A stretch of 64,000 nt of DNA from a virus. Made by a program: the position numbers and the translations under genes. Below the pieces are notes generated by a model that saw only the letters and a list, made by a program, of their open reading frames with translations, searched no databases and was not told where the DNA came from. Location: the IMG/VR virus record IMGVR_UViG_3300045988_177924; one strand, written 5' to 3'. Numbering within the stretch: the stretch's first letter is position 1; every line of letters starts with the position of its first letter. Shown here in pieces: positions 18,231 to 40,588 of this stretch.

Positions 18231-18270
18231 AGTAATACCTCCTTTTGTGGCCTAAAATAAGTTGTACAAT

Positions 18271-18299
18271 ATTATATCACAGGCGCCTGAGGTTGTCAA
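18271..18299 (-). promoter_or_regulatory. sigma-70-type promoter TTGACA-17-TATAAT (reverse strand)
   Basis: TTGACA at 18299-18294 and TATAAT at 18276-18271 on the minus strand; a GGCGC/GCGCC inverted repeat straddles the -35. Confidence 0.75.
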
Positions 18300-18318
18300 G
18301 CGCCCGTGAGTAATGATG

Positions 18319-19501: not shown

Positions 19502-19572
19502 ATTTATGCCTTTCCCTTTCGGGACAGTCGGGTTTGGTTTTTAAGCCGACTTTGCGACCCCGACCGTTTTGT

Positions 19573-25682: not shown

Positions 25683-27722
25683 TTATGCCACTTCTGGCAT
25701 TTTAATGAAACTGCTTCCCATCCCGTATTGGGTAGAAGTTGAAGTTAGAATTGCTTCGTTACATTCAATATTGTTTTGACGTAACCACCTTACCACAGTA
25801 GGAATCGCTTCTGTGTCATTACCCAGCCACCTATTCCCAAAACCATGGATTTGCCTGATCCGTAATCCAGCCACCTTGCCATCGGCGACTCCAATTTCTA
25901 CTTCAATTGTGTAGAAAGGTTTATCGGGTTCCGACTTTTTACGCAAGAACATAATAGTTGTAGAACCGATACTGTGCTCATGTGCGTAACCTCCTACACA
26001 ATGATGAAGGGACATACCTTCTTTACATATTTCGTCTTCATCTTTTGGTAGTCTAATGAGATAATTTTCATCGTCGTACTCAAGCTGTCCTCTGAATTCC
26101 AACTTTGGTTTGTTTTCTTTCTGTATCCTTTCCGCTCTTTGGCGAGCTTCTTCAGCATACATTGCTTGTCTCTGTTGTTGTTGTTCATTCAGTAATCGTG
26201 TGTACAAATCGTGCAATCGGTGTAACTCGGAGACGGCAACGACTGGCAGCTCAGGGCGCGGCCAATTTAACGATCTCCATGTTCGAGATGTGTCCAACAA
26301 TAGATCAATATTATGGGTTACTTGGGGATGCTTGATAACTTTGGGTAACATTTGATTTATCCACGCTGTTGTTTCGGGCGTATTATAAACATTCTCTGTT
26401 AGGTCTCGTAAGCGCTCCAAATTGTTGATATATATGTCAGTTGTTTGATTATCTAGCGATGCGGCATTAGGGCCAACAATCTTACGAAATGTTGCGATTT
26501 TTGTGCGATTTGTATAATAAGCGTTTGTATATGTGGCGGATATTAAGCGCCCAAGTTGATATTTGTTTAAACCCAACCATTTATCAACAGTTGTTGCTTT
26601 TTGATTGAGGTCAGACCCAAAAATCTCGGTTTGGTAATGTGGGTCCAGTGTGTTAATTAGTTGGACCCCTTTATATGATTTTGCTAATTGTTCATACATT
26701 GGATTTTTTACCATTATGGCCAACGCTTTTAGCGTGCTAAATTTTGTTTCTTCCGGATTTTCACAATAATAATAATTATCATCACCACGCCAGCTAGTTT
26801 GTTTTATGACCGGTTTCGCAAATAAACCAGCATATTTCTTAAACATCCCATCTTGTAAATCTTCGGGATTGTAAATTGTAACGTCGTTCAGGTTGGAGTA
26901 CGCACAGCTTACATCATAGTTTGGCGCTTTTGCGGCCGCGAAATTTTTGCCATCGTAATAGAACCGCATTGCTTGTCCCCACTTTGCCTTTGATTCTACA
27001 ATGGATATGCCAGGGAAATTCCTAACAATACCCACATTGAGGGTATTATCTGGAAATACTGTAGGTGCTTGGGAGAGCAAGTCATTTCCTTTGGCAATCA
27101 ACGCTGCTTTAGCAGTTTTGGATGTGTTAATCGTAAGTTGTCGCTGATATGTGAGATATTTTGTCACATAATCAATTTTTGTCCACGAAAAATTCGCATA
27201 CTCAATTTTGTCGTCGGGAAACAGCTCGTTGTAAATTTGAGCTCTTCTGTGCATACTTGTATCTCGCAAAATATCTTTGACAATCTCTATTGATGCGTGC
27301 GAGCCGTCGCTCAAAAAGAGTCGACGCGGATATTCCGATAAATCCACAAAATATCTTTCTGTGTTACCCGACCAATATTGAATATATTTATATTTAAACG
27401 TACGAATTTCGCCAGGTTTAGCGCGATTCATTGGGATTTCAACATATGCTAATTCCATCACTTGTTGTTTGCGATGGTATTTAATATACGTCAATAGCGG
27501 GGTCGCGCCTGCGGAATATTGTAAATATAGGGAAGATAAATTCTCCCATTTCAGAAGTGCGTTGCTTTCATCGTATGACAATCTTTTGCCGGTTGACAAA
27601 TCATGATAAATCTGACCTTCTGTTTTTGTAGACCAACGTAAGATGATTTTTGGTGTATATTTGGGATCGGGATTGGGTTCTTTTGCTACAATGTTTTTAA
27701 TGATTTTTTGAATATTTTTCAT
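25683..27722 (-). CDS. large protein with C-terminal PcfJ-like domain (679 aa)
   Basis: SD AAAGGAGA; C-terminal KEGMSLHHCVGGYAHEH...FYTIEVE...IRQIHGFGNRW resembles the PcfJ family signature (HCVxxY ... Q..G..N) as I remember it. Confidence 0.5.
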   Translation of the reverse strand: MKNIQKIIKNIVAKEPNPDPKYTPKIILRWSTKTEGQIYHDLSTGKRLSYDESNALLKWENLSSLYLQYSAGATPLLTYIKYHRKQQVMELAYVEIPMNRAKPGEIRTFKYKYIQYWSGNTERYFVDLSEYPRRLFLSDGSHASIEIVKDILRDTSMHRRAQIYNELFPDDKIEYANFSWTKIDYVTKYLTYQRQLTINTSKTAKAALIAKGNDLLSQAPTVFPDNTLNVGIVRNFPGISIVESKAKWGQAMRFYYDGKNFAAAKAPNYDVSCAYSNLNDVTIYNPEDLQDGMFKKYAGLFAKPVIKQTSWRGDDNYYYCENPEETKFSTLKALAIMVKNPMYEQLAKSYKGVQLINTLDPHYQTEIFGSDLNQKATTVDKWLGLNKYQLGRLISATYTNAYYTNRTKIATFRKIVGPNAASLDNQTTDIYINNLERLRDLTENVYNTPETTAWINQMLPKVIKHPQVTHNIDLLLDTSRTWRSLNWPRPELPVVAVSELHRLHDLYTRLLNEQQQQRQAMYAEEARQRAERIQKENKPKLEFRGQLEYDDENYLIRLPKDEDEICKEGMSLHHCVGGYAHEHSIGSTTIMFLRKKSEPDKPFYTIEVEIGVADGKVAGLRIRQIHGFGNRWLGNDTEAIPTVVRWLRQNNIECNEAILTSTSTQYGMGSSFIKMPEVA

Positions 27723-27749
27723 TTTTAATTCTCCTTTTATTTGTGTATT

Positions 27750-28343
27750 TTAAAACAACCAAATGTTTCTATGTTTGTTGATGTGTTTGCGGCAGCTCTC
27801 GTCGCCGGTGAAGAGACATTCCTCTTCATTGAGATAATACCATTTGCCTGTTCCCTCTTCTTGTTCGAAGTCAGGATTGATATTCCCTTCTTTGTACATT
27901 GTCACCGTCGTACGGACGGGTTCGAACGTTTGAGGATTTAACATCCAATACCGTTTTGTATAGGATTTGATTTCTTGTCCAGGGACAAGAGTTTGTAATA
28001 AGGCAAATTTTTCTACCTTGTTGCCTTGATATAATTTGACGAGGTCTTCTTCCTCGTAAACTGACACCGCTTTGGTAGGCAGTTCTTCGATTTCGATCTC
28101 ATAGTCATTTCTGCGCATTGACCACCCTTTGCGCAATGCCAGCCATTTGGCTTCTTCCATTGCTGCAGTAGTGTTCCTGCGCGGCAAGGAGTGGAATTCT
28201 TCCACGACGTTTTGAAACACTGTTTCGGTGATGATGTTTTCGTCCCATTCTTCTTGGTTCATCGGATGGGTTGGGGCAACTGGAACTTGTTTTTCTACAT
28301 TGTAGAACGTAGCTTTGACAGTTGCGATAATGTAATTTTTCAT
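27750..28343 (-). CDS. hypothetical protein (197 aa)
   Basis: SD GAAAGGAGAA; preceded by structured leader E1. Confidence 0.6.
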   Translation of the reverse strand: MKNYIIATVKATFYNVEKQVPVAPTHPMNQEEWDENIITETVFQNVVEEFHSLPRRNTTAAMEEAKWLALRKGWSMRRNDYEIEIEELPTKAVSVYEEEDLVKLYQGNKVEKFALLQTLVPGQEIKSYTKRYWMLNPQTFEPVRTTVTMYKEGNINPDFEQEEGTGKWYYLNEEECLFTGDESCRKHINKHRNIWLF

Positions 28344-28490
28344 AATGATTCTCCTTTCTATGCCATTAGTCTTCGATTAGCAAGATTTTTATTTTACGAA
28401 GATGATGCCATTATGAACACCATGAGCGCCACCCTCCTAAGAGGGCAACGGACTTGCACCGTTCACGCTTTCGCGCGGGCCTTGCGGTGA
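28344..28490 (-). ncRNA. conserved structured 5' leader, copy E1
   Basis: minus-strand blocks UAAUCACCGCAAGGCCCGC, ACGG-UGCAAGU-CCGU, GGCGCUCAUGGUG and GGCAUAGAAAGGAGAA are shared with E2; intervening hairpins differ in sequence but not in shape. Confidence 0.45.
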
Positions 28491-28982
28491 TTAACTCTCG
28501 TAAGATTCGAGAGCGTCCTCCAAATAATCAGTTCTTGCTCTTTCGAGCAAGAGTGATTTGGTAAGGGCATTCTTTTTGCCCTTGGTTGCTTTGAGCTCAT
28601 CTTCGGTGAGCGATGCGACAACTGTCGCTTGCGGCGTGAGTAAGACACCTTTCTTATAATCAATATAAGTTTCGGTGTCGATTTCGCTCTCGGCAGAGGT
28701 TACAATCTCATCAACGTTGTAGCCTTTAGTTAGAAGCATGAAACAAGAGGTCATCATGCTTTTTGCCTTATCGCTGTCGCCGGCGCAAACATCGATGCAA
28801 ATCTGCGCGAAGTGCACAGCAGCTTGCTTGTCGGCCTCGCCGTTGTAGCAGAATTTTTCTTTGCTGCCATCGGGAAACTCGATTGTTTCGATGCCGAGGT
28901 TGATATTCCCATCTGCTTTCATTGCGTCGAGGGCGTTGATGATGTTGGGGGTTGATACAGTTTGATTGATTTTAATTGACAT
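28491..28982 (-). CDS. hypothetical protein (163 aa)
   Basis: SD TAGGAGGA. Confidence 0.6.
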   Translation of the reverse strand: MSIKINQTVSTPNIINALDAMKADGNINLGIETIEFPDGSKEKFCYNGEADKQAAVHFAQICIDVCAGDSDKAKSMMTSCFMLLTKGYNVDEIVTSAESEIDTETYIDYKKGVLLTPQATVVASLTEDELKATKGKKNALTKSLLLERARTDYLEDALESYES

Positions 28983-29015
28983 ATATATGTCCTCCTATAT
29001 AATAATATTTTTTAA

Positions 29016-29411
29016 TTAAATGTTTACCACTCTTTCGCAAGCGGTTTTGATTCCGATAGGCATTGACCTATCATAGAATCGATCAGTGTGATCAGCCATT
29101 CGGGTGATCAACGTATAAATTTGATCAAGTTTATTGCAGAAAGGACTACAATAAACTTCAGTCCAGTTATAGGTTCCTCCTGAGAGTTTGCTTCCCGCCG
29201 GCAGCCCACTCGGGGTTTTCTTGGCTATGATGCAAAGATACATATAGCCTTCGGGGGAAAATTGAGCTAAGGAGATTTTCACCTTTTGTTGCTTAAAAGT
29301 CAATAAGACCTGTGAGTTTTCCACACCACTTAACGGGTGTTGTTTGACGACGACTTTGATGTTGTCGTCTTTGTGTTGGTTGATATAGTTTGTTAGGTCG
29401 TGGATAAGCAT
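29016..29411 (-). CDS. hypothetical protein (131 aa)
   Basis: SD AAAGGAGGTG. Confidence 0.6.
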   Translation of the reverse strand: MLIHDLTNYINQHKDDNIKVVVKQHPLSGVENSQVLLTFKQQKVKISLAQFSPEGYMYLCIIAKKTPSGLPAGSKLSGGTYNWTEVYCSPFCNKLDQIYTLITRMADHTDRFYDRSMPIGIKTACERVVNI

Positions 29412-29426
29412 ATCGCTTCACCTCCT

Positions 29427-29555
29427 TTATGTATTGGCTTGCGAGCAGGTTCCCCACTCGCAAGAGCGAGTTGTGCAGTCTTTGCACGGATCGTCTTCTA
29501 TAGTTGCTTCATATTCCTTGAGGTATTCCTCGATGGTGATTTGTTGGTATGGCAT
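29427..29555 (-). CDS. hypothetical Cys-containing micro-protein (42 aa)
   Basis: SD TGGAGG before ATG 29555; below the ORF-track cut-off. Confidence 0.4.
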   Translation of the reverse strand: MPYQQITIEEYLKEYEATIEDDPCKDCTTRSCEWGTCSQANT

Positions 29556-29738
29556 AATAACCTCCAATTAAAAAGTTTTTGTTTTTATATTTAATACCTC
29601 TTCTAAGGTATATAAATATCTTTCGTGGGTAAAAACTACAACGTTAAAGAGTTTCGCCACCGCATAAGCGCGGTGGCGATTGGTGTAGTCTTTTTGCTTA
29701 TTATTGATAAAAAGAGTATAAATTATCATAAACCCTCC

Positions 29739-29924
29739 TTAATCGATATTATCAACAGTGACTTGATATGTCACGTTGATTTTCAGTTGATGTATCAACG
29801 ACATTGAAAGATCATCACCGAGTTCAAATACATTGATTTCCCTCGGTGTTGCCATCGTCATTGTCGCGACGATGACGCCGTTGTTGTTATAGAAAATAAA
29901 ATTATAATGTTTTACATTTTTCAT
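29739..29924 (-). CDS. hypothetical protein (61 aa)
   Basis: SD GAGGAGGAA; ATGA-type overlap with the upstream gene. Confidence 0.5.
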   Translation of the reverse strand: MKNVKHYNFIFYNNNGVIVATMTMATPREINVFELGDDLSMSLIHQLKINVTYQVTVDNID

Positions 29925-30352
29925 TTTGTTATTCCTCCTCTCTCTTTTTTGTAGGCGTCTAACTTTTGTTCGGCGCGTTGGACATCGATGATGGGGTCGC
30001 CAAAATCGTAGTAGGATTCAACAATCCCTTCTTTGCCGATTTCGTACTCATCGATTTCATAACCATATTCGTCAATTGCAATATCAAACCCAAGTGGGGA
30101 TATATAATATTCCTCAAATGAACTTGCTAAATCACTTAGATTTAGATAATATTTGTTTCTCTCTTCTTCAGAAAGAGTGGAACAAAATACTTGTTTCATT
30201 TTCTTGAAAAGATATAAATCTTCCTCAAGAAGATTACGATTGTGTTTGATCCACTCAGTTGCTTGCTCTTTGTCATCAAAGATACAATAAGCAAAGTTTT
30301 GGTTATTTTCACCGTCAAAATAATCAATTTTCGAAATATAAACTTTTTTCAT
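29921..30352 (-). CDS. hypothetical acidic protein (143 aa)
   Basis: SD AAAGGAGGA before ATG 30352. Confidence 0.6.
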   Translation of the reverse strand: MKKVYISKIDYFDGENNQNFAYCIFDDKEQATEWIKHNRNLLEEDLYLFKKMKQVFCSTLSEEERNKYYLNLSDLASSFEEYYISPLGFDIAIDEYGYEIDEYEIGKEGIVESYYDFGDPIIDVQRAEQKLDAYKKERGGITK

Positions 30353-30356
30353 TTTC

Positions 30357-30560
30357 TTAGTCCTCCTTTTCTTTAAGAACGTTGAACGTCCCAACGATAT
30401 TATAATCGTTGATCTTGTTGATTAAGCTGTCCGCCGCCCCCAGGTTGCCCAGAAGCAGTTGTACTTCTGCTGCATCCAGCAAAAGTTGGTCGTAACGGGA
30501 GAGTTGCCTCTCTTCTGCAACTTGATCGAGTTCATCGATCCATGATTTAATATTTTTCAT
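30357..30560 (-). CDS. hypothetical protein (67 aa)
   Basis: SD GAAAGGAGAA before ATG 30560; the longer track ORF has no SD and would run into leader E2. Confidence 0.5.
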   Translation of the reverse strand: MKNIKSWIDELDQVAEERQLSRYDQLLLDAAEVQLLLGNLGAADSLINKINDYNIVGTFNVLKEKED

Positions 30561-30706
30561 AACGGTTTCTCCTTTCCCTGCCATGGGACCCCTAGCAATA
30601 ATAAAGTTTTTCGGGGACGGTGTCGTTATGCCCACCATAAGCGCCGCGTATTTCTACGCATCGGACTTGCACCGATCACCTCCGAGGGGGCGGGCCTTGC
30701 GGTGAT
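30561..30706 (-). ncRNA. conserved structured 5' leader, copy E2
   Basis: see E1; AUCGG-UGCAAGU-CCGAU hairpin co-varies with E1 AACGG/CCGUU. Confidence 0.45.
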
Positions 30707-30949
30707 TTATTTTAGTATTTCGCCGAAATTGTCGGTGACAAGTTGTTTGGCGACATCCGTCAAGTGGTGGATACACTTGCTGTAAGTCTCCGTTTTGCCT
30801 TCGACTTTAGCCCTGTATTCGGGCGTTATGGCGAAGGAAATTTTGGTGGCATTGGACATTTCTTTATCGAGTTGGGTGTTTACCCATATGACAAAATCGT
30901 TGACAAAGCCAACGATTGCCGCGATTTGGTCGGCGGTATAATTTTTCAT
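30707..30949 (-). CDS. hypothetical protein (80 aa)
   Basis: SD AAAGGAGG before ATG 30949. Confidence 0.55.
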   Translation of the reverse strand: MKNYTADQIAAIVGFVNDFVIWVNTQLDKEMSNATKISFAITPEYRAKVEGKTETYSKCIHHLTDVAKQLVTDNFGEILK

Positions 30950-30971
30950 AATAGCCTCCTTTTGCTTGGGG

Positions 30972-31391
30972 TTAGATGTTGCCCCAAACATCTAATTTGT
31001 TATAGTGTGCCTGGCAGGTTCCCCTGCGAGAATGCCCTCCACTATAATAAAACATGCCGTCTCCGGCATATATTTTGCGGCGGAGAAAGTCTTCCTCCAT
31101 TTTGATATTGTGATCTATAACCACAATTTTATTAATTTTAACATTGTTAAAATTAATATAGTAATACACTGGGACCAGTGCAACCTGGTCTCCTTTTTGG
31201 AGAGATGCCAAGGTTTTGGCGTTCTCCTTTTGAAGTTTTTTAATCTTTTCCCCGAGAGGGAAGATTTTGTATTGGACCGGACGAGAGGTCCAATTTTTTA
31301 ACGTGGCTTCTGCTACTTTGCGGACGTTGCCGCGTGTGGCGTTGACGACGATGTCGCCCATTTGTGTTTTAATGATAAATTGTTTTTTCAT
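30972..31391 (-). CDS. hypothetical basic protein (139 aa)
   Basis: SD GAAAGGAGAA; preceded by leader E3. Confidence 0.6.
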   Translation of the reverse strand: MKKQFIIKTQMGDIVVNATRGNVRKVAEATLKNWTSRPVQYKIFPLGEKIKKLQKENAKTLASLQKGDQVALVPVYYYINFNNVKINKIVVIDHNIKMEEDFLRRKIYAGDGMFYYSGGHSRRGTCQAHYNKLDVWGNI

Positions 31392-31761
31392 AGTGTTTCT
31401 CCTTTCCTGGCTAGGGAACCCGATTCGCCATTGTTTAGTTTTGTTTTACGGGTTGCCGAACTATGAACGGCAATGCTGATGGTTTCGGCTCATGCCGTCA
31501 TCAGGCCACGGACTTTTACCGTGACGACCATCTGTCCCGAGCAAGGGTTTAAGCTTACTCGGGACATTGTGTGATTTTTACATATTTTACCTCCCCACCC
31601 CCGCTTGGGTGTATTGTATTTCACGGCTCCTTAATAAGAGAATTGTTCCCACTCACTCGCTTGTGAGCAGTTGAATAAACGTTCCTCTTCCCCTTCGGAG
31701 GGGTAACCTATCTCTCTTAAAGCGGTAAGAGAGCAATTGTGGGACTATATCCCACGACAAC
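31392..31761 (-). ncRNA. conserved structured 5' leader, extended copy E3
   Basis: 3' half aligns with E1/E2 (AAUCACACAAUG, CACGG-UAAAAGU-CCGUG, UUCAUAGU, CCAGGAAAGGAGAA); 5' half adds four more clean hairpins. Confidence 0.45.
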
Positions 31762-32163
31762 TTATAGATTAAAAATTTCTATAAGTTTTTGGCAATTCTC
31801 GCGAGGATTGCGTTTGTCCCATTGCATTGGGACACCTTTATTTTTGTGGTTTTTTATTTCACCACAAAACGTGTGAAAAGATATTTGTATCTTTTCTTGT
31901 GTATTATAAAAATACACTACGCGGGATTTGTTCCCGTTTTGATCAGGCATTTCTACCACATAATAACGGAATTGGCATTCCGTTATTTTTGAAGAATTAA
32001 TAAGGCTTATGGCCTTAATTATTTCTTTATCTTTGAGGGAATACCCCCAAAGTTTTGCGCGTTTGTCGCCTTCAAGGGAAAGGATATTTAATCCTTTCCC
32101 GGCGTCCGACGCTGTTTGTGCCAGACAAATATGTCTGGCAATTTCTTTATTGAGATTAAACAT
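31762..32163 (-). CDS. hypothetical protein (133 aa)
   Basis: SD TAAGGAGG. Confidence 0.6.
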   Translation of the reverse strand: MFNLNKEIARHICLAQTASDAGKGLNILSLEGDKRAKLWGYSLKDKEIIKAISLINSSKITECQFRYYVVEMPDQNGNKSRVVYFYNTQEKIQISFHTFCGEIKNHKNKGVPMQWDKRNPRENCQKLIEIFNL

Positions 32164-32178
32164 ATTGAATTTACCTCC

Positions 32179-32343
32179 TTATTCTTGTGTCAAAGACACA
32201 ATTTTTACAGCGCTGTGGCCGCAAGCCCGCAGTTGTTGCGCGGTTTCTTCAGCACTCTTTCGAGTGATGAAAAAGTTGTTAAAGACCTGCACGGTCTTTG
32301 ACCTGTCGCCGTAAGCGACGTAGTGTATAATCCAAATCTTCAT
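32179..32343 (-). CDS. hypothetical protein (54 aa)
   Basis: SD AAAGGAGGA before ATG 32343; below the ORF-track cut-off. Confidence 0.45.
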   Translation of the reverse strand: MKIWIIHYVAYGDRSKTVQVFNNFFITRKSAEETAQQLRACGHSAVKIVSLTQE

Positions 32344-32357
32344 TAGATTGTCCTCCT

Positions 32358-32657
32358 TTATTTGATGTATTCAGTAAGAACGACGGTGATTTCGCCGTCG
32401 TGTTCGTCTTCATCTTCACAGAAGTAACTGGCAGTTACTCCTTTGATTTTATTGAGGGATTGCGCGACTAACTCAGAGTTATAGAACCAAATGTTGGCAG
32501 GATTTTTGCTTTCAAGCGCCGCTTGAAATACTTCAAAATCCGTAATGTGCATTACGGGTTTCCCAAATGTTTTATATTGCATTTGGATTTTGTTATAGAG
32601 GATATCAGCGATTGTGTCGTTGATAAGCACGGGGTTGTTGTTTTGATTATTTAGCAT
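32358..32657 (-). CDS. hypothetical protein (99 aa)
   Basis: weak SD GGGAAAAGG; first ORF after the long structured region. Confidence 0.55.
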   Translation of the reverse strand: MLNNQNNNPVLINDTIADILYNKIQMQYKTFGKPVMHITDFEVFQAALESKNPANIWFYNSELVAQSLNKIKGVTASYFCEDEDEHDGEITVVLTEYIK

Positions 32658-33499
32658 AAGTTTGCCTTTTCCCTTATCCCTGGGAGCTAGGAGTTATTTT
32701 TGTGCTTTCAGTTCATCTTTCGATGATGCAGAGCCACGACGAGCACGTAAGCACTTGGCTCCATTACTTCTATCCCTTAGACAGTCCTCTCATCCTTGCT
32801 CTTTCTGGTGAGCCCCCTGTCATTTCCGCACCAGGTTTTGCACCCTGGCACGTTTCGGGATATCGGCAATCAGGCTTGCCGCGATTTAGGTTTTGTGCCC
32901 TCTTTGTAAGTGGGACACACGCAGTTGTCTCTGCGCCTGGGGTTGGTTTAACTCCCAGATATACCAATATCAAGTCGTTGCTTGACTCGGAGTGTGCTTA
33001 ACGTAGACTCCTCTACAGGTTAGTTTGTTATTATGTGCAGTCCAACACACCTGAATGTCGTGTTGGGCTTCCAACTTGGTGTGAAAACACACCAACGCTA
33101 ACAAGTACGGCTTTCCCTTTAGCTCCATACTTGTTACGGGAACTGATGAATTTTTCGTTGGCTAGACTACTTACCTCGTTTAAGGTCCCTTCATCTGGGT
33201 TGCTACACTTATTGACGCCAGTGGCAGGCGTATGTTGTTCCCCCGAAAGGAAACATGGGAGTTCCTTGTGGATGGTAAGATTTCATCCCTCTCAAGGGCC
33301 AATCGAGAAGGCCACAAGGAACCATTTATTCCATTCCTGAGAATGGAGTGGGGTGATTAACCCCAACGTGTCAAGTTGTACCGCGAGCGTACTGACTTGA
33401 CACGGAAATTATTTTTTTCGATTGTTGACGGCAGAGCGTCATATTTCCAATCAAAGCTCCTTTTCATCACAGTCTTCACCGTATAAAAAGGCAAGCTAA
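32658..33499 (-). ncRNA. about 0.85 kb ORF-free, G+C-rich, helix-dense region: candidate large structured RNA or long leader
   Basis: no credible ORF; many 5-12-bp helices with G-U pairs only on the minus strand; follows two terminators and a weak promoter. Confidence 0.45.
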
Positions 33500-33505
33500 A
33501 AGTGA

Positions 33506-33534
33506 AATTTACACTTTTTGGAAAGTATTTTCAA
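33506..33534 (-). promoter_or_regulatory. possible promoter TTGAAA-17-TAAATT (reverse strand)
   Basis: TTGAAA at 33534-33529, TAAATT at 33511-33506; weaker than the other promoters. Confidence 0.3.
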
Positions 33535-33602
33535 TCGAAAATACAATTTCAGGACAAAAATATTCATAAACCCATTTTCCCGCCCCAACCCAATTTCCCC
33601 AT

Positions 33603-33634
33603 AAAAAAAAGGCGCCGACATCCGTAGTCAGCGC
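33603..33634 (-). terminator. rho-independent terminator (second of a tandem pair)
   Basis: GCGCUGAC-UACGGAU-GUCGGCGC(C) then U8 on the minus strand. Confidence 0.75.
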
Positions 33635-33654
33635 TCATCTCACCTCACACACAT

Positions 33655-33684
33655 AAAAAAAAGAGGAGCCAGGCACTCCTCTTC
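33655..33684 (-). terminator. rho-independent terminator (first of a tandem pair)
   Basis: AGAGGAG-UGCCUGG-CUCCUCU then U8 on the minus strand, 5 nt after the stop of 33689-33994. Confidence 0.8.
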
Positions 33685-33688
33685 TTAA

Positions 33689-33994
33689 TCAAAACCAGAA
33701 AAAGTCATTCAAGACATCGAACATCGACGGCATCGAACTCTTCCCATTATAACTTATATGGAAAGAGCCGTAGTCCTTGACGAACTCTTTCAGCAACTTT
33801 TGTGCTTCGGCCTCAGCCTCTCGCGCCTTTTTAAAGGCGTCGACGACAGCCTTCGACCTCGTCTCGCGTTCGTTTTTAAGAGCCAGCTGTTTCTCTTCTT
33901 CGGCTTTCTTTTTTGCGACAATAGCCTCTTCGGCTTTTTCGCACTCTTCTTTTGTTTCATAGACCTTGTCGGTCATCTCACTGTAATACTTCAT
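33689..33994 (-). CDS. hypothetical K/E-rich coiled-coil protein (101 aa)
   Basis: SD AAAGGAG. Confidence 0.6.
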   Translation of the reverse strand: MKYYSEMTDKVYETKEECEKAEEAIVAKKKAEEEKQLALKNERETRSKAVVDAFKKAREAEAEAQKLLKEFVKDYGSFHISYNGKSSMPSMFDVLNDFFWF

Positions 33995-34064
33995 ATTGTA
34001 CTCCTTTTGAGCGTTCCTTATCTTCGCTCTAATTTATATTTCCCATCGTTCTCTGCTGACGGGA

Positions 34065-34573: not shown

Positions 34574-35836
34574 TTAATCTTGACTGTTAATGATATTTTG
34601 ACTTATATATAAGCAACTTCTTCTCGCTGAGATTCTGTTACAGTTTGATAATTTTGGTGTCTTATAGCCTCTCGGCATATAACTAAAATCTATCTGATTA
34701 TTAAATATGTCCATAAGTATAGCAAATCCAGAACTCATCTTTCCTTTGATGAAATACTCTTTTCCAAAGTATTTGACCTTATCAAATTTTCTAAATCCTT
34801 GAATCTTACCTACAGGGATTTTTTGTTCTCCACGAACGCCCCTAGTTAATTGATAATTTCCTTTGGATACTCTTCGCTTTTGATAGATAGTGTCATTGAG
34901 CGTGAACTCTTTACCACCGGAAGAGATGACACAAGCATCTATGAAATGGTCTTTTGGTAGATGGAGACTTTCACGATTCGTCTTAGTAACAAATCCAAAA
35001 GTCTCAATAGCGTCAGGATAGACCTTAAGCAACCGACTTCTGATGATACTCATGTGAGTTGCATACTTTAAATTCATCTTTTTAGGTTTTTTGTTTAGTG
35101 CAATTTTCCCACTATGGACTCCGGTGTGGCAATCTTCACATAAGGTTATGAGATTGCTCTCATCATCTGTTCCACTTTGACTTTTAAAGACGATGTGATG
35201 AACCTCTAATCTGGTATGTTTCTTACCGCAAATCTGGCAGGTATAACCATCACGATTAAGTATGGCTTCTCGTCTACTGGCCCATTCATAGTTAAAACCC
35301 TTTTGATACCCCCAGTGTTTGACCTTCTCCAAAATCAAACTTGGATTTTTCATCAGATGTGTATCAAACTGACTGACTTCAAGTACAATCTTTGAAATTG
35401 GGAGTATCTTTTTGCAGAACTCGATTTCATCAATGTGTGCTTGTACCTTGTGCTTGACGGAAGGTGGAAGCCTGTTTAATTTGGTAGAGTTATTACGGTT
35501 GAGGAATCTTGACTCACGATAACGAGTCTTTCTGTTGCGTCTATTCCTACGAGCCTGTCTCCTACTATCCATCTTCGACTTGATATCGTCTCGAAGTTTT
35601 ACATTTGACTGATACAAAACTTTGTTATTGCCAACACAAGCAGTACCAATATATTTTGAGCCTGTATCTTGTCCTAAGACAACGTCTTGTGTATACTCAG
35701 TGGAGTCATAAGTAAGTTGAATTGTAAATGGACATCTCTTTTTGACTTTAGCTTTGCCATCTTTGAGAAGCAATCTTGCGACCACATTCTCGCATGGCAT
35801 TAGCGGTTTCCCACTTTTTGAAATTACATAAACCAT
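34574..35836 (-). CDS. iscB: IscB, OMEGA-family RNA-guided nuclease (RuvC split by HNH) (420 aa)
   Basis: PLMP (SGKPLMPC); RuvC-I VLGQDTGSKYIG; Arg-rich bridge helix RRQARRNRRNRKTRYR; RuvC-II IVLEVSQFD; HNH CQICG..LEVHHIVFKSQSGTDDESNLITLCEDCH; RuvC-III KDHFIDACVI; SD AAGGAGA. Confidence 0.85.
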   Translation of the reverse strand: MVYVISKSGKPLMPCENVVARLLLKDGKAKVKKRCPFTIQLTYDSTEYTQDVVLGQDTGSKYIGTACVGNNKVLYQSNVKLRDDIKSKMDSRRQARRNRRNRKTRYRESRFLNRNNSTKLNRLPPSVKHKVQAHIDEIEFCKKILPISKIVLEVSQFDTHLMKNPSLILEKVKHWGYQKGFNYEWASRREAILNRDGYTCQICGKKHTRLEVHHIVFKSQSGTDDESNLITLCEDCHTGVHSGKIALNKKPKKMNLKYATHMSIIRSRLLKVYPDAIETFGFVTKTNRESLHLPKDHFIDACVISSGGKEFTLNDTIYQKRRVSKGNYQLTRGVRGEQKIPVGKIQGFRKFDKVKYFGKEYFIKGKMSSGFAILMDIFNNQIDFSYMPRGYKTPKLSNCNRISARRSCLYISQNIINSQD

Positions 35837-36161
35837 AAATAAGTCTCCTTAAAATTCTCACTCTTAATGAGTGGTAACGCCTATCTTAACTCTGTTACCA
35901 AGTTAAGAATTGGTCTTCCTTTCGTCAATGTTAATTAGGCTTTTGCGACATACACACAGGGCTTTTCTTACTCCAACCCAACTTAATGTATATCGACAGA
36001 GCGACGGTCTAAGGCGACAACCGAAGGTGTCATGACCTAACTAACGTAGCTCTCATTTCTGAGGCTGAGACTTGTGAACTATTTAATGGAAGCCTACGAG
36101 TTTTTAGCTCATAGGTGGCTCACTAGGATTATTACATCACTTTACTCCTTTATATCTTATA
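35837..36161 (-). ncRNA. candidate omega RNA (HEARO-type) of IscB, including the 5' guide region
   Basis: 325 nt ORF-free stretch between a consensus promoter and the iscB ATG; helices CCUAUGAG/CUCGUAGG, CUCA-GAAA-UGAG, CUUAAC/GUUAAG interleaved with GGUAAC/GUUACC, CACUC/GAGUG. Confidence 0.6.
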
Positions 36162-37906: not shown

Positions 37907-39548
37907 GTGCCTAATTTACAAAACCTATATCAAGTTTTTAAACTTAAATCTAGTTTTATTGTAGAGAACAACTTAAATATAGTTAATTATTCAAAATCTA
38001 AGGCAGCTCGCGATGGAGCGCTGGTATCAATTGGTGATAATCTGGTTTTTCAACAAATCAGAAAATATTATAATGATACCAGAAGTCATCGAGAGATTTT
38101 TAACGATGTCCAACAATTTCGTCGCGCTATAAGAGCCGCGAAGAGAGAGGGACGAACTAAGGAAGCTGGTATTCTTAATCGGTTTTTGACAGATGCGTTG
38201 TTTGTTAAAGATATTATTAACGTTGAAGTCGTGACCAAGAAAGAATATAAAGAATTGGCCAAGAATGGTTTTGACGTTAACGGTATTCATTATGTGAGAT
38301 TTTGTTGTGGTTCGGGACAAATGAGGCGCAACACTATTACCTTTATTAACGAAGCTCTTTATGACACCTTGTACAAAAACCTGATGTGCGGGTTGGACAC
38401 CAAGATTTCAGAAATGAATTTGGCGAAATATCATGCGTATTTTGCGTTGGCGTTTTCAAGTGTTATGTGGGTGCGAACTCCGAGGGTATGCGTAGTTAAG
38501 GATTTCTTTAATGTGGTGAAGGATCAATCGGTTGATTGGATTTGCCCCAATCCCGAGACTGGGAAAAAACAGATTAAAGAAAGAATAATGGATATCGAGT
38601 TAAACTGCGCTGATGGACAGGGGTTGATAGATCCTAAGTTTGCGGCGCTGTGGGCAGAAGATATGAATTTATCATATACGCCGTCGTCGTTCGTTGTCCG
38701 TAGCGTTTTTGTGAAGGGGTGCTTGGTTCCATTTGATTTTCGAGAATTTGGAGCTGTACACGGTATTGACTCAATTCGTGACCGGTGGGGAATCTCGCAT
38801 AGGTTAGAGGATATTGATGTTATATTGAGTGAATCTCAATTCAAGATGTATAAATATTATGTATCTTGGTATGAATATCAAAAGTATGTAGATGCGGCTG
38901 GTATTCAGTGGGGAGTTGCGAGATATAATAAAAAGTACGATGACGAATATGTGCTGGCTAATTATCAATATCTGCAAGTGTTGGATATCAATAAGGATGA
39001 TATTCTGGAATTGATTCAACCGACGATTGATTGGATTAAAAAGATTTGTTCAGGTGACCAATTGTATACAATGCTGTATATGTTGGGTTGCAAGGGCGAA
39101 CAGGTCAGTTTTAAAGAGCTGTACAATGGAGCGCAAAGCACGGCGTTGAGGGCTATTATTAAAAACCCGATAATGTTGGAAGACGCTCATGTACAGAAGA
39201 AAATATATCGCAATATTGCTGAGACGATAAACAAGGCGAAGATTGGTAAGATATGGGTGAGAGGAAATTATAGTTTTATGATTTCCGATCCCGTGGCACA
39301 GTGCCAATCGGCGCTTGGGTTGGAACCGGTGGGGTTAATTGGGCCTGACCAAGTGTATTCAAATTTCTGGAGGCAGCGAAGTGTGGGTTGTGTTGACCTG
39401 TGCCGCAGCCCGATGATTGACTCGCACGAACACAACCCTTGTAAAGTAGTATCGTCCGAAGATATGGATTATTGGTATCAATATATTAAGAGTGGAATCA
39501 TTTATAGTATATATGATACTTCAACATTACGACACTCCGATAGTGACT
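37907..39548 (+). CDS. YonO/RdRP-like single-subunit RNA polymerase, exon 1 (spliced product about 957 aa)
   Basis: GTG start with SD AGAGGAAG; ADGQGLID (RdRP-family DGxGxI), CRSPMIDSHEHNPCKVV; ends ..HSDSD then one nt of the next codon. Confidence 0.55.
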
Positions 39549-40588
39549 TAACATAATGGGTCCGTCGGATGGTAACATTCGATTGCTACTCAGTGAACCT
39601 GGCAATCCAGGGTGTGGGATAAAATCCTGCTAACAGTAAAAATCGTAAGTTTTGTTGGTCGGCCTGGAGAGAAATGCCGACAGAAGAAAAAGAATTCTAT
39701 GTCTATGAATGGATAAACAAAGACACGGGAGAGATTTTCTACGTAGGGAAAGGTAGTGGTTATCGTTGGAAACGTAAAACCGCCAGCTCTCGAAACAGAT
39801 ATTTCAATCGTTATGTCCAAAAATATCCAAATTGTGAACCTCGAAAAGTTTATGAAAATTTAACTGAAGAAGAGGCTTACAACAAAGAGCGAGAATTAAT
39901 AGCCGAATATAAAGCACAAGGCGTTCAGCTGGTTAACTTCGACGAAGGAGGACGACGAGGTGGACGCTCACCTGGAAAGCTAAATGGTATGTATGGGAAA
40001 ACACATACACCAGAAGCTCGAAAGAAAATAAGCGAAGCCAATTCCGATGGCCACAATGCGGGAATCAACAATACTCAATATGGAATTAGTCCAAGAGAGC
40101 GTATGAGTCCTGCGATATACGAGCAGTGGCGTACGGCACACAAGAAAGTAGTTGGTGCAGCAAATCCAAATTGCCATCATACAATTTTGTTTAATCTTGA
40201 ACATGAGATTGTGAAAGAGTTTGAATATACGATTGAATGTGCGCATTTTTTGGAAGAGCAAGAGCATTTAACTAATGGAATTGAGAATATTCGCTCGCAA
40301 ATCAAATATTACAGCAATACAGGACACGTTATGTTCAATAAGTATTATGTAAAAGTGATTCGGCCAACAAAACAAGACAATACTGTGCCAAGCCTCGTGA
40401 AAGAGGAAGGTTAAACGACTACCGAAAGCATATCAAGCGAGAAAAACGTTTGAAAAGAAGCAAGTAGGGTAGAGAACGGTGCAAATCCGGTTCTCGAAGT
40501 GCTGAGGGAACTATGAACGGTAAAAGAACATAGCTCTAAGAGATAGTCTACTCCCCTAATAAATATCGGGAAACCGAGGGTATAAAGG
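39549..40588 (+). mobile_element. group I intron (1040 nt) carrying a GIY-YIG homing endonuclease ORF
   Basis: P1 exon GACU paired with intron GGUC, with U.G at the splice site; core AACUAU/AUAGU(C)U (P7) inside R/S-like elements GGGAACUAUGAACGG and AAGAGAUAGUCUAC; terminal G at 40588; splicing restores the frame. Confidence 0.75.
39674..40414 (+). CDS. GIY-YIG homing endonuclease with NUMOD3-like repeats (246 aa)
   Basis: FYVYEWINKDTGEIFYVGKGSGYR ... NKERELI (GIY-YIG module); GMYGKTHTPEARKKISEA (NUMOD3-like). Confidence 0.8.
   Translation: MPTEEKEFYVYEWINKDTGEIFYVGKGSGYRWKRKTASSRNRYFNRYVQKYPNCEPRKVYENLTEEEAYNKERELIAEYKAQGVQLVNFDEGGRRGGRSPGKLNGMYGKTHTPEARKKISEANSDGHNAGINNTQYGISPRERMSPAIYEQWRTAHKKVVGAANPNCHHTILFNLEHEIVKEFEYTIECAHFLEEQEHLTNGIENIRSQIKYYSNTGHVMFNKYYVKVIRPTKQDNTVPSLVKEEG

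Follow-up and report, generated by a model that had tools for sequence, protein, structure and literature searches.

Putative self-cleaving ribozymes before a shared ribosome-binding leader in the operon of a human gut phage

We analyzed a 64,000-nucleotide stretch of viral DNA (IMG/VR record IMGVR_UViG_3300045988_177924; "the window" means this whole stretch), in which a long minus-strand operon contains three noncoding gaps: 28344-28490 (E1), 30561-30706 (E2), and 31392-31761 (E3). The operon is tightly packed, with usual intergenic gaps of 10-20 nucleotides, and E1, E2, and E3 are its only long gaps besides a noncoding region of ~830 nucleotides at 32658-33500 and a few gaps of 55-90 nucleotides. 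An earlier note on this DNA had described the three stretches as one family of structured 5' leaders. The stretches exist as that note described them, and part of the observation held up: E1 and E2 can be aligned from end to end, but E3 aligns with them convincingly only over the last ~85 nucleotides. As explained below, a leader that is common to all three is fused to two classes of putative ribozyme. All three modules are predicted to lie within one long minus-strand transcription unit. There is a promoter-like site at 33534-33506, with two terminators further upstream of it, and we found no minus-strand terminator or antiterminator within the three modules. Each module sits directly before a different and unrelated small gene (27750, 30357, and 30972), as the note had also said. 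In PHROGs we found no match for the encoded proteins of 197, 67, and 139 amino acids, and Pfam had no match for the 197- and 139-amino-acid proteins (the 67-amino-acid protein was scanned against PHROGs only). These two resources gave no function for any of the genes that adjoin the modules.

A search of the DNA against 50,697 phage records gave no match, and hence no annotated relative. The close relatives of the window are contigs of 75-135 kb from human gut metagenomes. (L-numbers such as L137, L209, or L230 are labels of fetched related or viral contigs.) A protein of 549 amino acids, encoded at 37907-39556 on the plus strand, has a Pfam RdRP match and is 29% identical to SPbeta YonO; it is also homologous to Enterocloster and Clostridium phage proteins. 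We annotate it as a putative YonO-type single-subunit RNA polymerase. Because of this homologue and the strong Shine-Dalgarno sites, we consider the phage, which comes from the human gut, to be SPbeta-like. Together with the relatives in SPbeta, Enterocloster, and Clostridium phages, these features also point to a Firmicute host.

The 5' halves of E1 and E2 are predicted to be four-way-junction twister-sister ribozymes. The Rfam model for twister-sister (RF02681, with a gathering score of 34 bits) matches E1 at 28413-28492 with 71.0 bits (E = 3.3e-14) and E2 at 30628-30707 with 54.5 bits (E = 1.7e-9). The conserved L1 nucleotides (G5 C6 A7 A8 G9 / G59 C60 U61 C62 A63 U64) can be read in E1, and E2 has U62 instead; in other words, L1 is GCAAG / GCUC^AU in E1 and GCAAG / GCUU^AU in E2, where "^" is the predicted cleavage site. 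The SL4 loop nucleotides GUGCAAGUC are present in both, which agrees with the crystal structure (PMC5660989). That four-way-junction structure puts cleavage at C62-A63, and substitution of C62 is reported to keep activity (PMC5660989). Among the sequence blocks that the earlier note had listed, in E1 and E2 the block AAUCACCGCAAGG comprises the upstream stop codon, the 5' strand of stem P1, and loop L1, and GGCGCU(C/U)AUGGUG comprises the P2 and P1 3' strands with, between them, the part of L1 that holds the cleavage site. The blocks CAUA, UUGCUA, and GGCA..GAAAGGAGAA..AUG are parts of the downstream leader.

Pairing in the twister-sisters is conserved. In 16 distinct copies, taken from the window and from related contigs, standard pairs make up 98.6% of the pair cells, as compared to 87.4% in shuffles and 28-54% with slid partners, and seven pairs in P3, P4, and P5 are altered on both sides. 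The covarying stem with a seven-nucleotide loop that the note had pointed out is P4/SL4 in E1 and E2, and its second variable hairpin is P5; the supposed counterparts in E3 (for the second hairpin, CGGC-AUGA-GCCG) are instead stems I and II of a hammerhead (see below). The upstream stop codons of E1 and E2 end 1-2 nucleotides ahead of P1, so a terminating ribosome and the folded ribozyme presumably cannot coexist. We rejected the AUG at the cleavage site as the start of a small upstream open reading frame (ORF) or of leaderless translation: the frames are not conserved (9 codons in E1; in frame with the gene in E2), and this AUG belongs to the twister-sister consensus. Twister-sisters occur in at least 119 stretches in viral contigs. 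Among the matches listed, there are often 2-4 within a few kb, and they lie a median of 44 nucleotides ahead of a start codon with a preceding Shine-Dalgarno site. A separate observation is that a conserved GC-rich element of ~110 nucleotides (…AAGCCCGGCAC…GCGCACCCAUCGCCAACAAUGGC…GCCGGGG…) lies directly 3' of twister-sisters in many unrelated viral contigs (L005, L007, L013, L019, L033, L071, L086, L099-L102, L110, and L114). This element had no match in Rfam at the gathering threshold.

The core of E3 (31478-31532, minus strand) is predicted to be a variant of the type III hammerhead rather than a twister-sister: GAUGGU-C^-GUCACGG[UAAAAGU]CCGUGGC-CUGAUGA-C-GGC[AUGA]GCC-GAA-ACCAUC. All of the catalytic core (C3-U4-G5-A6-N7-G8-A9, G12-A13-A14, A15.1-U16.1, and H17, which is not G) is present, with one extra C inserted between A9 and G10.1. 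A descriptor search of the window found one hammerhead site, in E3, versus 0.01 expected in shuffles. In the fetched contigs, the same search found 22 further hammerheads, all with an extra nucleotide (C, A, or U). The loops UAAAAGU and AUGA are conserved. Across 11 distinct copies in related contigs, 176 of 176 pair cells in stems I-III are standard, 8 of the 16 pairs are altered on both sides (four in stem I and four in stem III), and the covariation score is 0.474, as compared to 0.155 for shuffles. Stem II is uninformative for covariation because it is invariant.

The best Rfam match to E3 is Hammerhead_II (14.6 bits, E = 1.1), which is below the gathering score of 37. The inserted nucleotide and the short stem II may account for this low score. 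As Rfam gave just a partial match below threshold, we identified the hammerhead from the descriptor search and the covariation. Overall, the note's remark that the elements could not be matched to a known class does not stand, since E1 and E2 exceed the RF02681 threshold and E3 fits the hammerhead core and helices. We also considered E3 as a degenerate twister-sister. It has no RF02681 match even at E ≤ 10, the equivalents of L1 are a plain CAAUG/CAUUG helix, and the hammerhead fits completely, so we rejected this reading. The hairpin CUGAUG..CAUCAG that had been proposed for E3 is not a conserved structure: it is missing in copies with another stem III and is an alternative fold that pairs most of the catalytic CUGAUGA box.

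Two other observations concern E3. Stem-loop I of the hammerhead (ACGG-UAAAAGU-CCGU, 31525-31505) is nearly identical to P4/SL4 of the twister-sisters (ACGG-UGCAAGU-CCGU, 28463-28447 and 30676-30660), and this loop is conserved even in distant contigs. The likeness may be a coincidence, a shared tertiary motif, or the result of recombination. Also, a run of 4-5 hairpins lies at 31575-31765 (minus strand), between the gene that ends at 31762 and the hammerhead, with a folding z score of -2.3. The run is found (at 99% identity) in L209 only, and it ends with a Shine-Dalgarno sequence and a mini-ORF with adjacent start and stop codons (AUG-UAA, 31594-31578). The extension of E3 at 31565-31761, which the note had included in its family, is a separate structured stretch.

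The part that is truly common to E1, E2, and E3 is predicted to be a leader of 70-85 nucleotides downstream of the ribozyme. A profile hidden Markov model (HMM) built from 29 distinct leaders has exactly three matches in the window (E = 2.6e-15 for E1, 1.8e-16 for E2, and 7.2e-14 for E3), and the next best match has E = 0.73. The homology of E3 to E1 and E2 is limited to this leader (31389-31471). In this sense, the three do share a family, although two ribozyme classes are fused to it. Neither the leader HMM nor any ribozyme model matches the two places suggested for looser relatives, 19502-19572 and the 3' end of the 32.7-33.5 kb region. In Rfam, including the RAGATH motifs, no family matches the leader segments at E ≤ 10.

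Our model of the leader has four helices (two hairpins and two pseudoknots) and is supported by covariation. HpA is the 5' hairpin. In PK2, the HpA loop (CAUARYG) would pair with the start region (CRUUAUG), including the start codon; the linkers of 2-3 and 0-1 nucleotides correspond to the classical H-type pseudoknot geometry. HpB is a hairpin with an A-rich loop of 20-27 nucleotides, and in PK1 this loop would pair with the segment immediately 5' of the Shine-Dalgarno sequence. In a hand-made alignment of the 29 distinct leaders, 97.6% of the 633 cells are paired, as compared to 80.1% in shuffles and 28-51% with slid partners, and the covariation score is 0.452 versus 0.174 in shuffles. An alignment of nine sequences by MAFFT, with no hand fitting, pointed the same way for HpB and the start-codon helix. 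Of the four helices, PK2 has the best anchor, since CAUA and AUG do not vary. It has two covarying pairs (AU/GC/GU and CG/UA/UG), and variants of the E3-type leader in L225 and L215 have CAUAACG with CGUUAUG, a double compensatory change. There are about five types of leader, and the long hairpin loops differ in sequence between types. The E1 leader is 99-100% identical in 14 relatives, in which the flanking genes are 82-94% identical and the ribozymes are 91-100% identical.

In leaders that are linked to twister-sisters, one strand has two potential partners. HpA takes its 5' strand (UGGUG) from P1, where it is the 3' strand, and the 3' partner in HpA (CAUCA or CACCG) mimics the 5' strand of P1. 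Because HpA and P1 use the same strand, HpA would have to wait until the RNA is cut and the upstream fragment has left. When the uncleaved RNA is folded, its minimum-free-energy structure contains the full ribozyme, with the start-codon helix stacked beside P1. These folds have energies of -47.8 and -49.0 kcal/mol, as compared to -40.1 and -42.9 kcal/mol with HpA forced, which leaves the ribozyme ahead by about 6-8 kcal/mol before cleavage; HpA can compete in the 3' product. We also examined 96 distinct 3' products of phage twister-sisters, taken from viral and metagenome loci that we had fetched. Among these, hairpins at the 5' terminus that use the P1 3' strand again are enriched (p = 2e-5): 92% have such a hairpin with a stem of at least 4 bp, versus 73% in shuffles. 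The first 30 nucleotides fold at -5.1 versus -4.0 kcal/mol. In these products, the sequence after P1 often repeats the P1 5' strand (a modest but significant enrichment). As a further observation, CC directly before the AUG is more common after twister-sisters (34% versus 13%).

Table 1. Positions of the modules' predicted elements and of the genes that follow them. SD, Shine-Dalgarno sequence.
Feature	Sequence	Position	Strand	Remark
197-aa gene		27750-28343	minus	served by E1 leader
67-aa gene		30357-30560	minus	served by E2 leader
139-aa gene		30972-31391	minus	served by E3 leader
E1 upstream stop codon	UAA	28493-28491	minus	1 nt before P1
E1 P1	CACC + GGUG	28489-28486 + 28421-28418	minus	
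E1 SL4 hairpin		28461-28449	minus	stem and loop
E1 predicted cleavage	C / A	28424 / 28423	minus	
E1 leader		28341-28423	minus	5' end of predicted 3' cleavage product
E1 HpA		28422-28418 + 28407-28403	minus	
E1 PK2	CAUAAUG + CAUUAUG	28415-28409 + 28347-28341	minus	start codon 28343-28341
E1 HpB		28402-28397 + 28375-28370	minus	
E1 PK1	UGCUA + UGGCA	28382-28378 + 28365-28361	minus	
E1 SD	GGAG	28354-28351	minus	
E2 upstream stop codon		30709-30707	minus	
E2 P1, 5' strand	CACC	30704-30701	minus	
E2 SL4 hairpin		30674-30662	minus	stem and loop
E2 predicted cleavage	U / A	30639 / 30638	minus	position 62 is U
E2 leader		30558-30638	minus	
E2 HpA	3' strand CACCG	30637-30633 + 30622-30618	minus	
E2 PK2	CAUAACG + CGUUAUG	30630-30624 + 30564-30558	minus	start codon 30560-30558
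E2 HpB	CCCC + GGGG	30616-30613 + 30592-30589	minus	
E2 PK1	UGCUA + UGGCA	30597-30593 + 30583-30579	minus	
E2 SD		30572-30569	minus	
Hairpin 5' of E3 hammerhead	UCCCGAG...CUCGGGA	31535-31564	minus	directly 5' of hammerhead; also in L137 and L209
E3 stem III	GAUGGU + ACCAUC	31532-31527 + 31483-31478	minus	open stem
E3 predicted cleavage	after C17	after C31526	minus	
E3 stem I	loop UAAAAGU	31525-31519 + 31511-31505	minus	
E3 core box	CUGAUGA	31504-31498	minus	
E3 stem II	GGC-AUGA-GCC		minus	3 bp, then GAA and A15.1
E3 leader		31389-31471	minus	
E3 HpA	GCCG + CGGC	31471-31468 + 31458-31455	minus	
E3 PK2	CAUAGU(U) + (C)ACUAUG	31465-31459 + 31395-31389	minus	start codon 31391-31389
E3 HpB	AACCCG + CGGGUU	31454-31449 + 31422-31417	minus	
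E3 PK1	UGGC + GCCA	31430-31427 + 31411-31408	minus	
E3 SD		31402-31399	minus	

In the relatives, the element upstream of the leader is swapped. We sorted 49 distinct leader contexts by their upstream element: 29 have a twister-sister, 7 have a twister, 2 have a hammerhead, 6 have an uncharacterized element, and 5 are unclassified (four of these end with the fetched DNA, and one is a weak match in an unrelated contig). The twisters are a minimal variant of the type-P1 twister. Two copies were scored with Rfam, at 39.6 and 34.7 bits (E = 6e-6 and 2e-4), which is below the gathering score. Our first guess for this element had been a pistol ribozyme; Rfam places it with the type-P1 twisters, as a variant (sites at L137:855-907, minus strand, and L230:2231-2283). 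Pistol ribozymes (54 bits) do occur in the relatives, at L221:8531-8591 and L229:3699-3759. With the twister variant and pistol in relatives, the early operon of this phage group has four classes of putative self-cleaving ribozyme. The types of ribozyme and leader are re-assorted: L079 and L137 carry mixed combinations, and in L226, a twister-sister and an E2-type leader stand in front of a gene whose orthologue in the window comes after the hammerhead. The module edges (31474/31471, 30707/30708, 30552/30553, and 28334-28336) are where alignments with relatives break off.

The uncharacterized element is conserved, lies directly before the leader, and has two domains (L230 at about 2710-2830; also L209, L215, L218, L220, L221, L137, and L043). 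In domain one, a CCCCACAG/CUGUGGGG stem encloses a covarying hairpin; domain two is a 12-layer hairpin capped by the T-loop-like UUCGACU. We considered calling it tRNA-like, but ARAGORN found no tRNA in L137 or L209 and Rfam had none at E ≤ 1 in L137, L230, or L225, so this label is unsupported. By guilt by association, the element is a candidate for a new processing RNA.

The window contains other structured loci. At the head of the operon, after the promoter-like site, at least five related contigs share a conserved minus-strand region of about 860 noncoding nucleotides (32658-33520) with the window, at 73-94% identity. Copies differ by the gain or loss of entire hairpins, there are stems with compensatory changes, and the substitutions have no 3-base periodicity (34/43/32). 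It has no Rfam match at E ≤ 5 and looks like a large, unclassified structured RNA. At 34574-36123 (minus strand), a HEARO RNA (35910-36123, 94.6 bits in Rfam) is upstream of a 420-amino-acid ORF with RRXRR and HNH domains; the combination looks like a phage-carried IscB-type RNA-guided nuclease locus. A perfect sigma-70 consensus (TTGACA-16-TATAAT) lies antisense to the operon at 28976-29003 on the plus strand and overlaps the 28491-28982 gene at its 5' end. Another promoter of consensus sequence (TTGACA-17-TATAAT, 18231-18318, minus strand) lies inside a strong hairpin in an 88-nucleotide gap of the minus-strand operon.

We propose that the modules probably carry out intercistronic self-processing, by which every downstream gene would receive a ribosome-binding site of its own and a defined 5' end capped by structure. 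During or after transcription, the ribozymes would cut the polycistronic RNA at 28424|28423, 30639|30638, and 31526|31525. With a twister-sister, the compact ribozyme body, ending in a 2',3'-cyclic phosphate, would stay on the 3' end of the upstream message; with the hammerhead, the ribozyme body would stay on the 5' end of the downstream message. After twister-sister cleavage, HpA would form and bury the 5'-hydroxyl end in structure from nucleotide 2 onward. In either case, the downstream 5'-hydroxyl would be paired immediately, in HpA or in the retained ribozyme body. According to a passage in PMC3328962, 5'-hydroxyl ends made by ribozymes are substrates of RNase J1 in B. subtilis, so a paired 5' end is a plausible protective device: it would shield the downstream mRNA from this 5'-to-3' exonuclease of Firmicutes. 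The leader would supply its own ribosome-binding site and uncouple the downstream gene from the upstream one. The start-codon pseudoknot may tune, delay, or license translation. Because three ribozyme classes and one further element are swapped before one kind of leader, the selected function would be to make a defined 5' end for that leader. Of the functions that the earlier note had offered, a processing site thus fares best, as the conserved cores fall into self-cleaving ribozyme classes.

Several points weigh against this proposal. Ribozyme activity in this phage is inferred from the sequence. The leaders comprise only about five independent types, and the counts for HpA, HpB, and PK1 are biased because the alignment was hand-fitted to these helices. 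PK1 has one covarying pair, and complementarity of 4-5 bp would be expected there by chance. The folding energies of the leaders are no better than those of shuffles (z = -1.4 to +0.7), only E1 and E3 have the start-codon helix in their minimum-free-energy fold when the leader is folded in isolation, and HpA varies on one side only in the group linked to twister-sisters. The near-identity of leaders could reflect recent spread or gene conversion instead of selection. A paired start codon should lower translation rather than aid it. Finally, when phage twister-sisters are taken in general, pairing of the product's 5' end with the start region is not enriched (p = 0.47 among 76 distinct leaders), so we rejected such pairing as a property of the whole class.

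A bolder form of the idea is that the shared leader is a new structured translation-initiation element that is gated by self-cleavage. Before the cut, the GGUG strand would close P1; after it, GGUG would re-pair downstream and produce a 5'-terminal H-type pseudoknot that contains the start codon, so that the cut would be an irreversible switch that sets how stable the downstream message is and how it is translated. It would follow that the uncharacterized element is one more processing RNA not yet described, be it a self-cleaving ribozyme of a new kind or a mimic of an RNase P/Z substrate. We hold this only tentatively. It is similarly doubtful that the leader is a translational operator whose double pseudoknot is read by a phage or host protein, or by the ribosome, to co-regulate the three genes, with the ribozymes only delivering a defined RNA. 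A protein-binding operator had been among the note's suggestions and is conceivable for the leader part alone. The leader is nearly invariant within each type and more conserved than the ribozyme or the flanking genes, the start codon is within a conserved helix, and the Shine-Dalgarno sequence is between two pseudoknot strands. The pseudoknots of the S4 alpha-operon and of T4 gene 32 share this logic. Yet we identified no candidate binding protein, the leader loops are A-rich and variable, and because the five leader types differ by ~30-40% in sequence, one protein would have to read their shape.

Two further explanations seem improbable to us. If cleavage lowered the expression of distal genes, RNase J1 would degrade the 5'-hydroxyl product and create graded polarity. 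The host does appear to be a Firmicute, and for glmS in B. subtilis, a passage in PMC3328962 describes a self-cleavage product whose 5'-hydroxyl end sends the downstream RNA to RNase J1. However, the predicted product in the phage begins with a conserved hairpin from nucleotide 2 (twister-sister) or with a whole ribozyme body (hammerhead and twister), and a strong conserved Shine-Dalgarno sequence follows directly. Alternatively, the modules might act mainly as DNA, with repeated 150-bp units serving as linkers for homologous recombination that swaps cassettes, and with leader conservation as a by-product of homogenization. This would fit the alignment breaks at module edges and the re-assortment in L079, L137, and L226, but it would leave unaccounted for that the catalytic cores are intact, that seven or more helices carry compensatory changes, and that one slot before the leader is filled by four different RNA elements. 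Such recombination is compatible with self-processing as an added effect. A riboswitch-like ligand sensor or transcription attenuator, another of the note's suggestions, is very improbable indeed. The conserved multi-helix 5' leader and a pseudoknot that touches the ribosome-binding region might suggest one, but no riboswitch family matches 27500-34000 in Rfam at E ≤ 10, the modules contain no minus-strand terminator-like site, and the conserved 5' cores are those of ribozymes. Also, from one type to another the long loops vary freely, and the downstream genes encode unrelated small proteins.

The function that small self-cleaving ribozymes have in bacteria and phages is largely open, and the processing of polycistronic transcripts has only been suggested in reviews (PMC6765202). 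This phage group is a natural experiment on that question, with precise predictions on where the RNA is cut, on P1-HpA exchange, on the pseudoknot at the start codon, and on a dependence on RNase J1. It also yields a candidate new processing RNA and a variant of the hammerhead that escapes the current Rfam models. For specialists, the core is ordinary, as these are known ribozymes; the module as a composite offers a useful lead on phage ribozyme function that can be tested. The pseudoknotted leader, its strict association with interchangeable processing modules, and the strand shared by P1 and HpA are absent from Rfam and from the literature that we searched.

How do these modules compare with known systems? 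E1 and E2 have the P1-L1-P2 arrangement and the four-way junction with P3, P4/SL4, and P5 of RF02681, and the ribozyme itself does not differ, except for the U at the non-essential position 62 in E2; what is new in the window is the downstream copy of the P1 5' strand and the conserved leader. Like type III hammerheads, E3 has the core CUGAUGA ... GAAA, the UC^ cleavage site, and three helices with an open stem III. E3 differs in the extra nucleotide at A9/G10.1, which all 22 other copies also have, and in the 3-bp stem II, and it is undetected by the Rfam hammerhead models. An extra nucleotide at A9/G10.1 is known in a chrysanthemum viroid hammerhead. The pseudoknot operators of the S4 alpha-operon leader and T4 gene 32 include the ribosome-binding region and the start codon; the leaders in the window have no kinship to them in sequence or family and no known binding protein, and a helix strand is shared with a ribozyme stem. 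RNase III cuts the early polycistronic mRNAs of T7 and SP82 into separately stable and separately translated messages with structured ends. The likeness is in the intercistronic cuts and the structured end left on each product, but here the RNA is predicted to cut itself, leaving a 5'-hydroxyl and a 2',3'-cyclic phosphate, with no need for a host enzyme. In prophages, multiple hammerheads cut polycistronic RNAs in vitro (Perreault et al. 2011, PMC3088659), and E3 is likewise intergenic in a phage operon beside other ribozymes. The glmS ribozyme, as described in a passage of PMC3328962 that cites Collins et al. 2007, also lies in a Firmicute mRNA leader and makes a downstream product with a 5'-hydroxyl end; it needs a metabolite cofactor, and its product is exposed to decay. 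In contrast, the modules in the window match no cofactor-binding family, and base pairing is predicted for the end of the product. Different small ribozymes that are interchangeable are found in 5' untranslated regions and intergenic regions of fungal and plant RNA viruses, and self-cleavage itself promotes translation of the downstream ORF (bioRxiv 10.1101/2024.05.16.594327). That system is eukaryotic and cap-independent, whereas the one in the window is predicted to be led by Shine-Dalgarno sites and belongs to a phage with double-stranded DNA.

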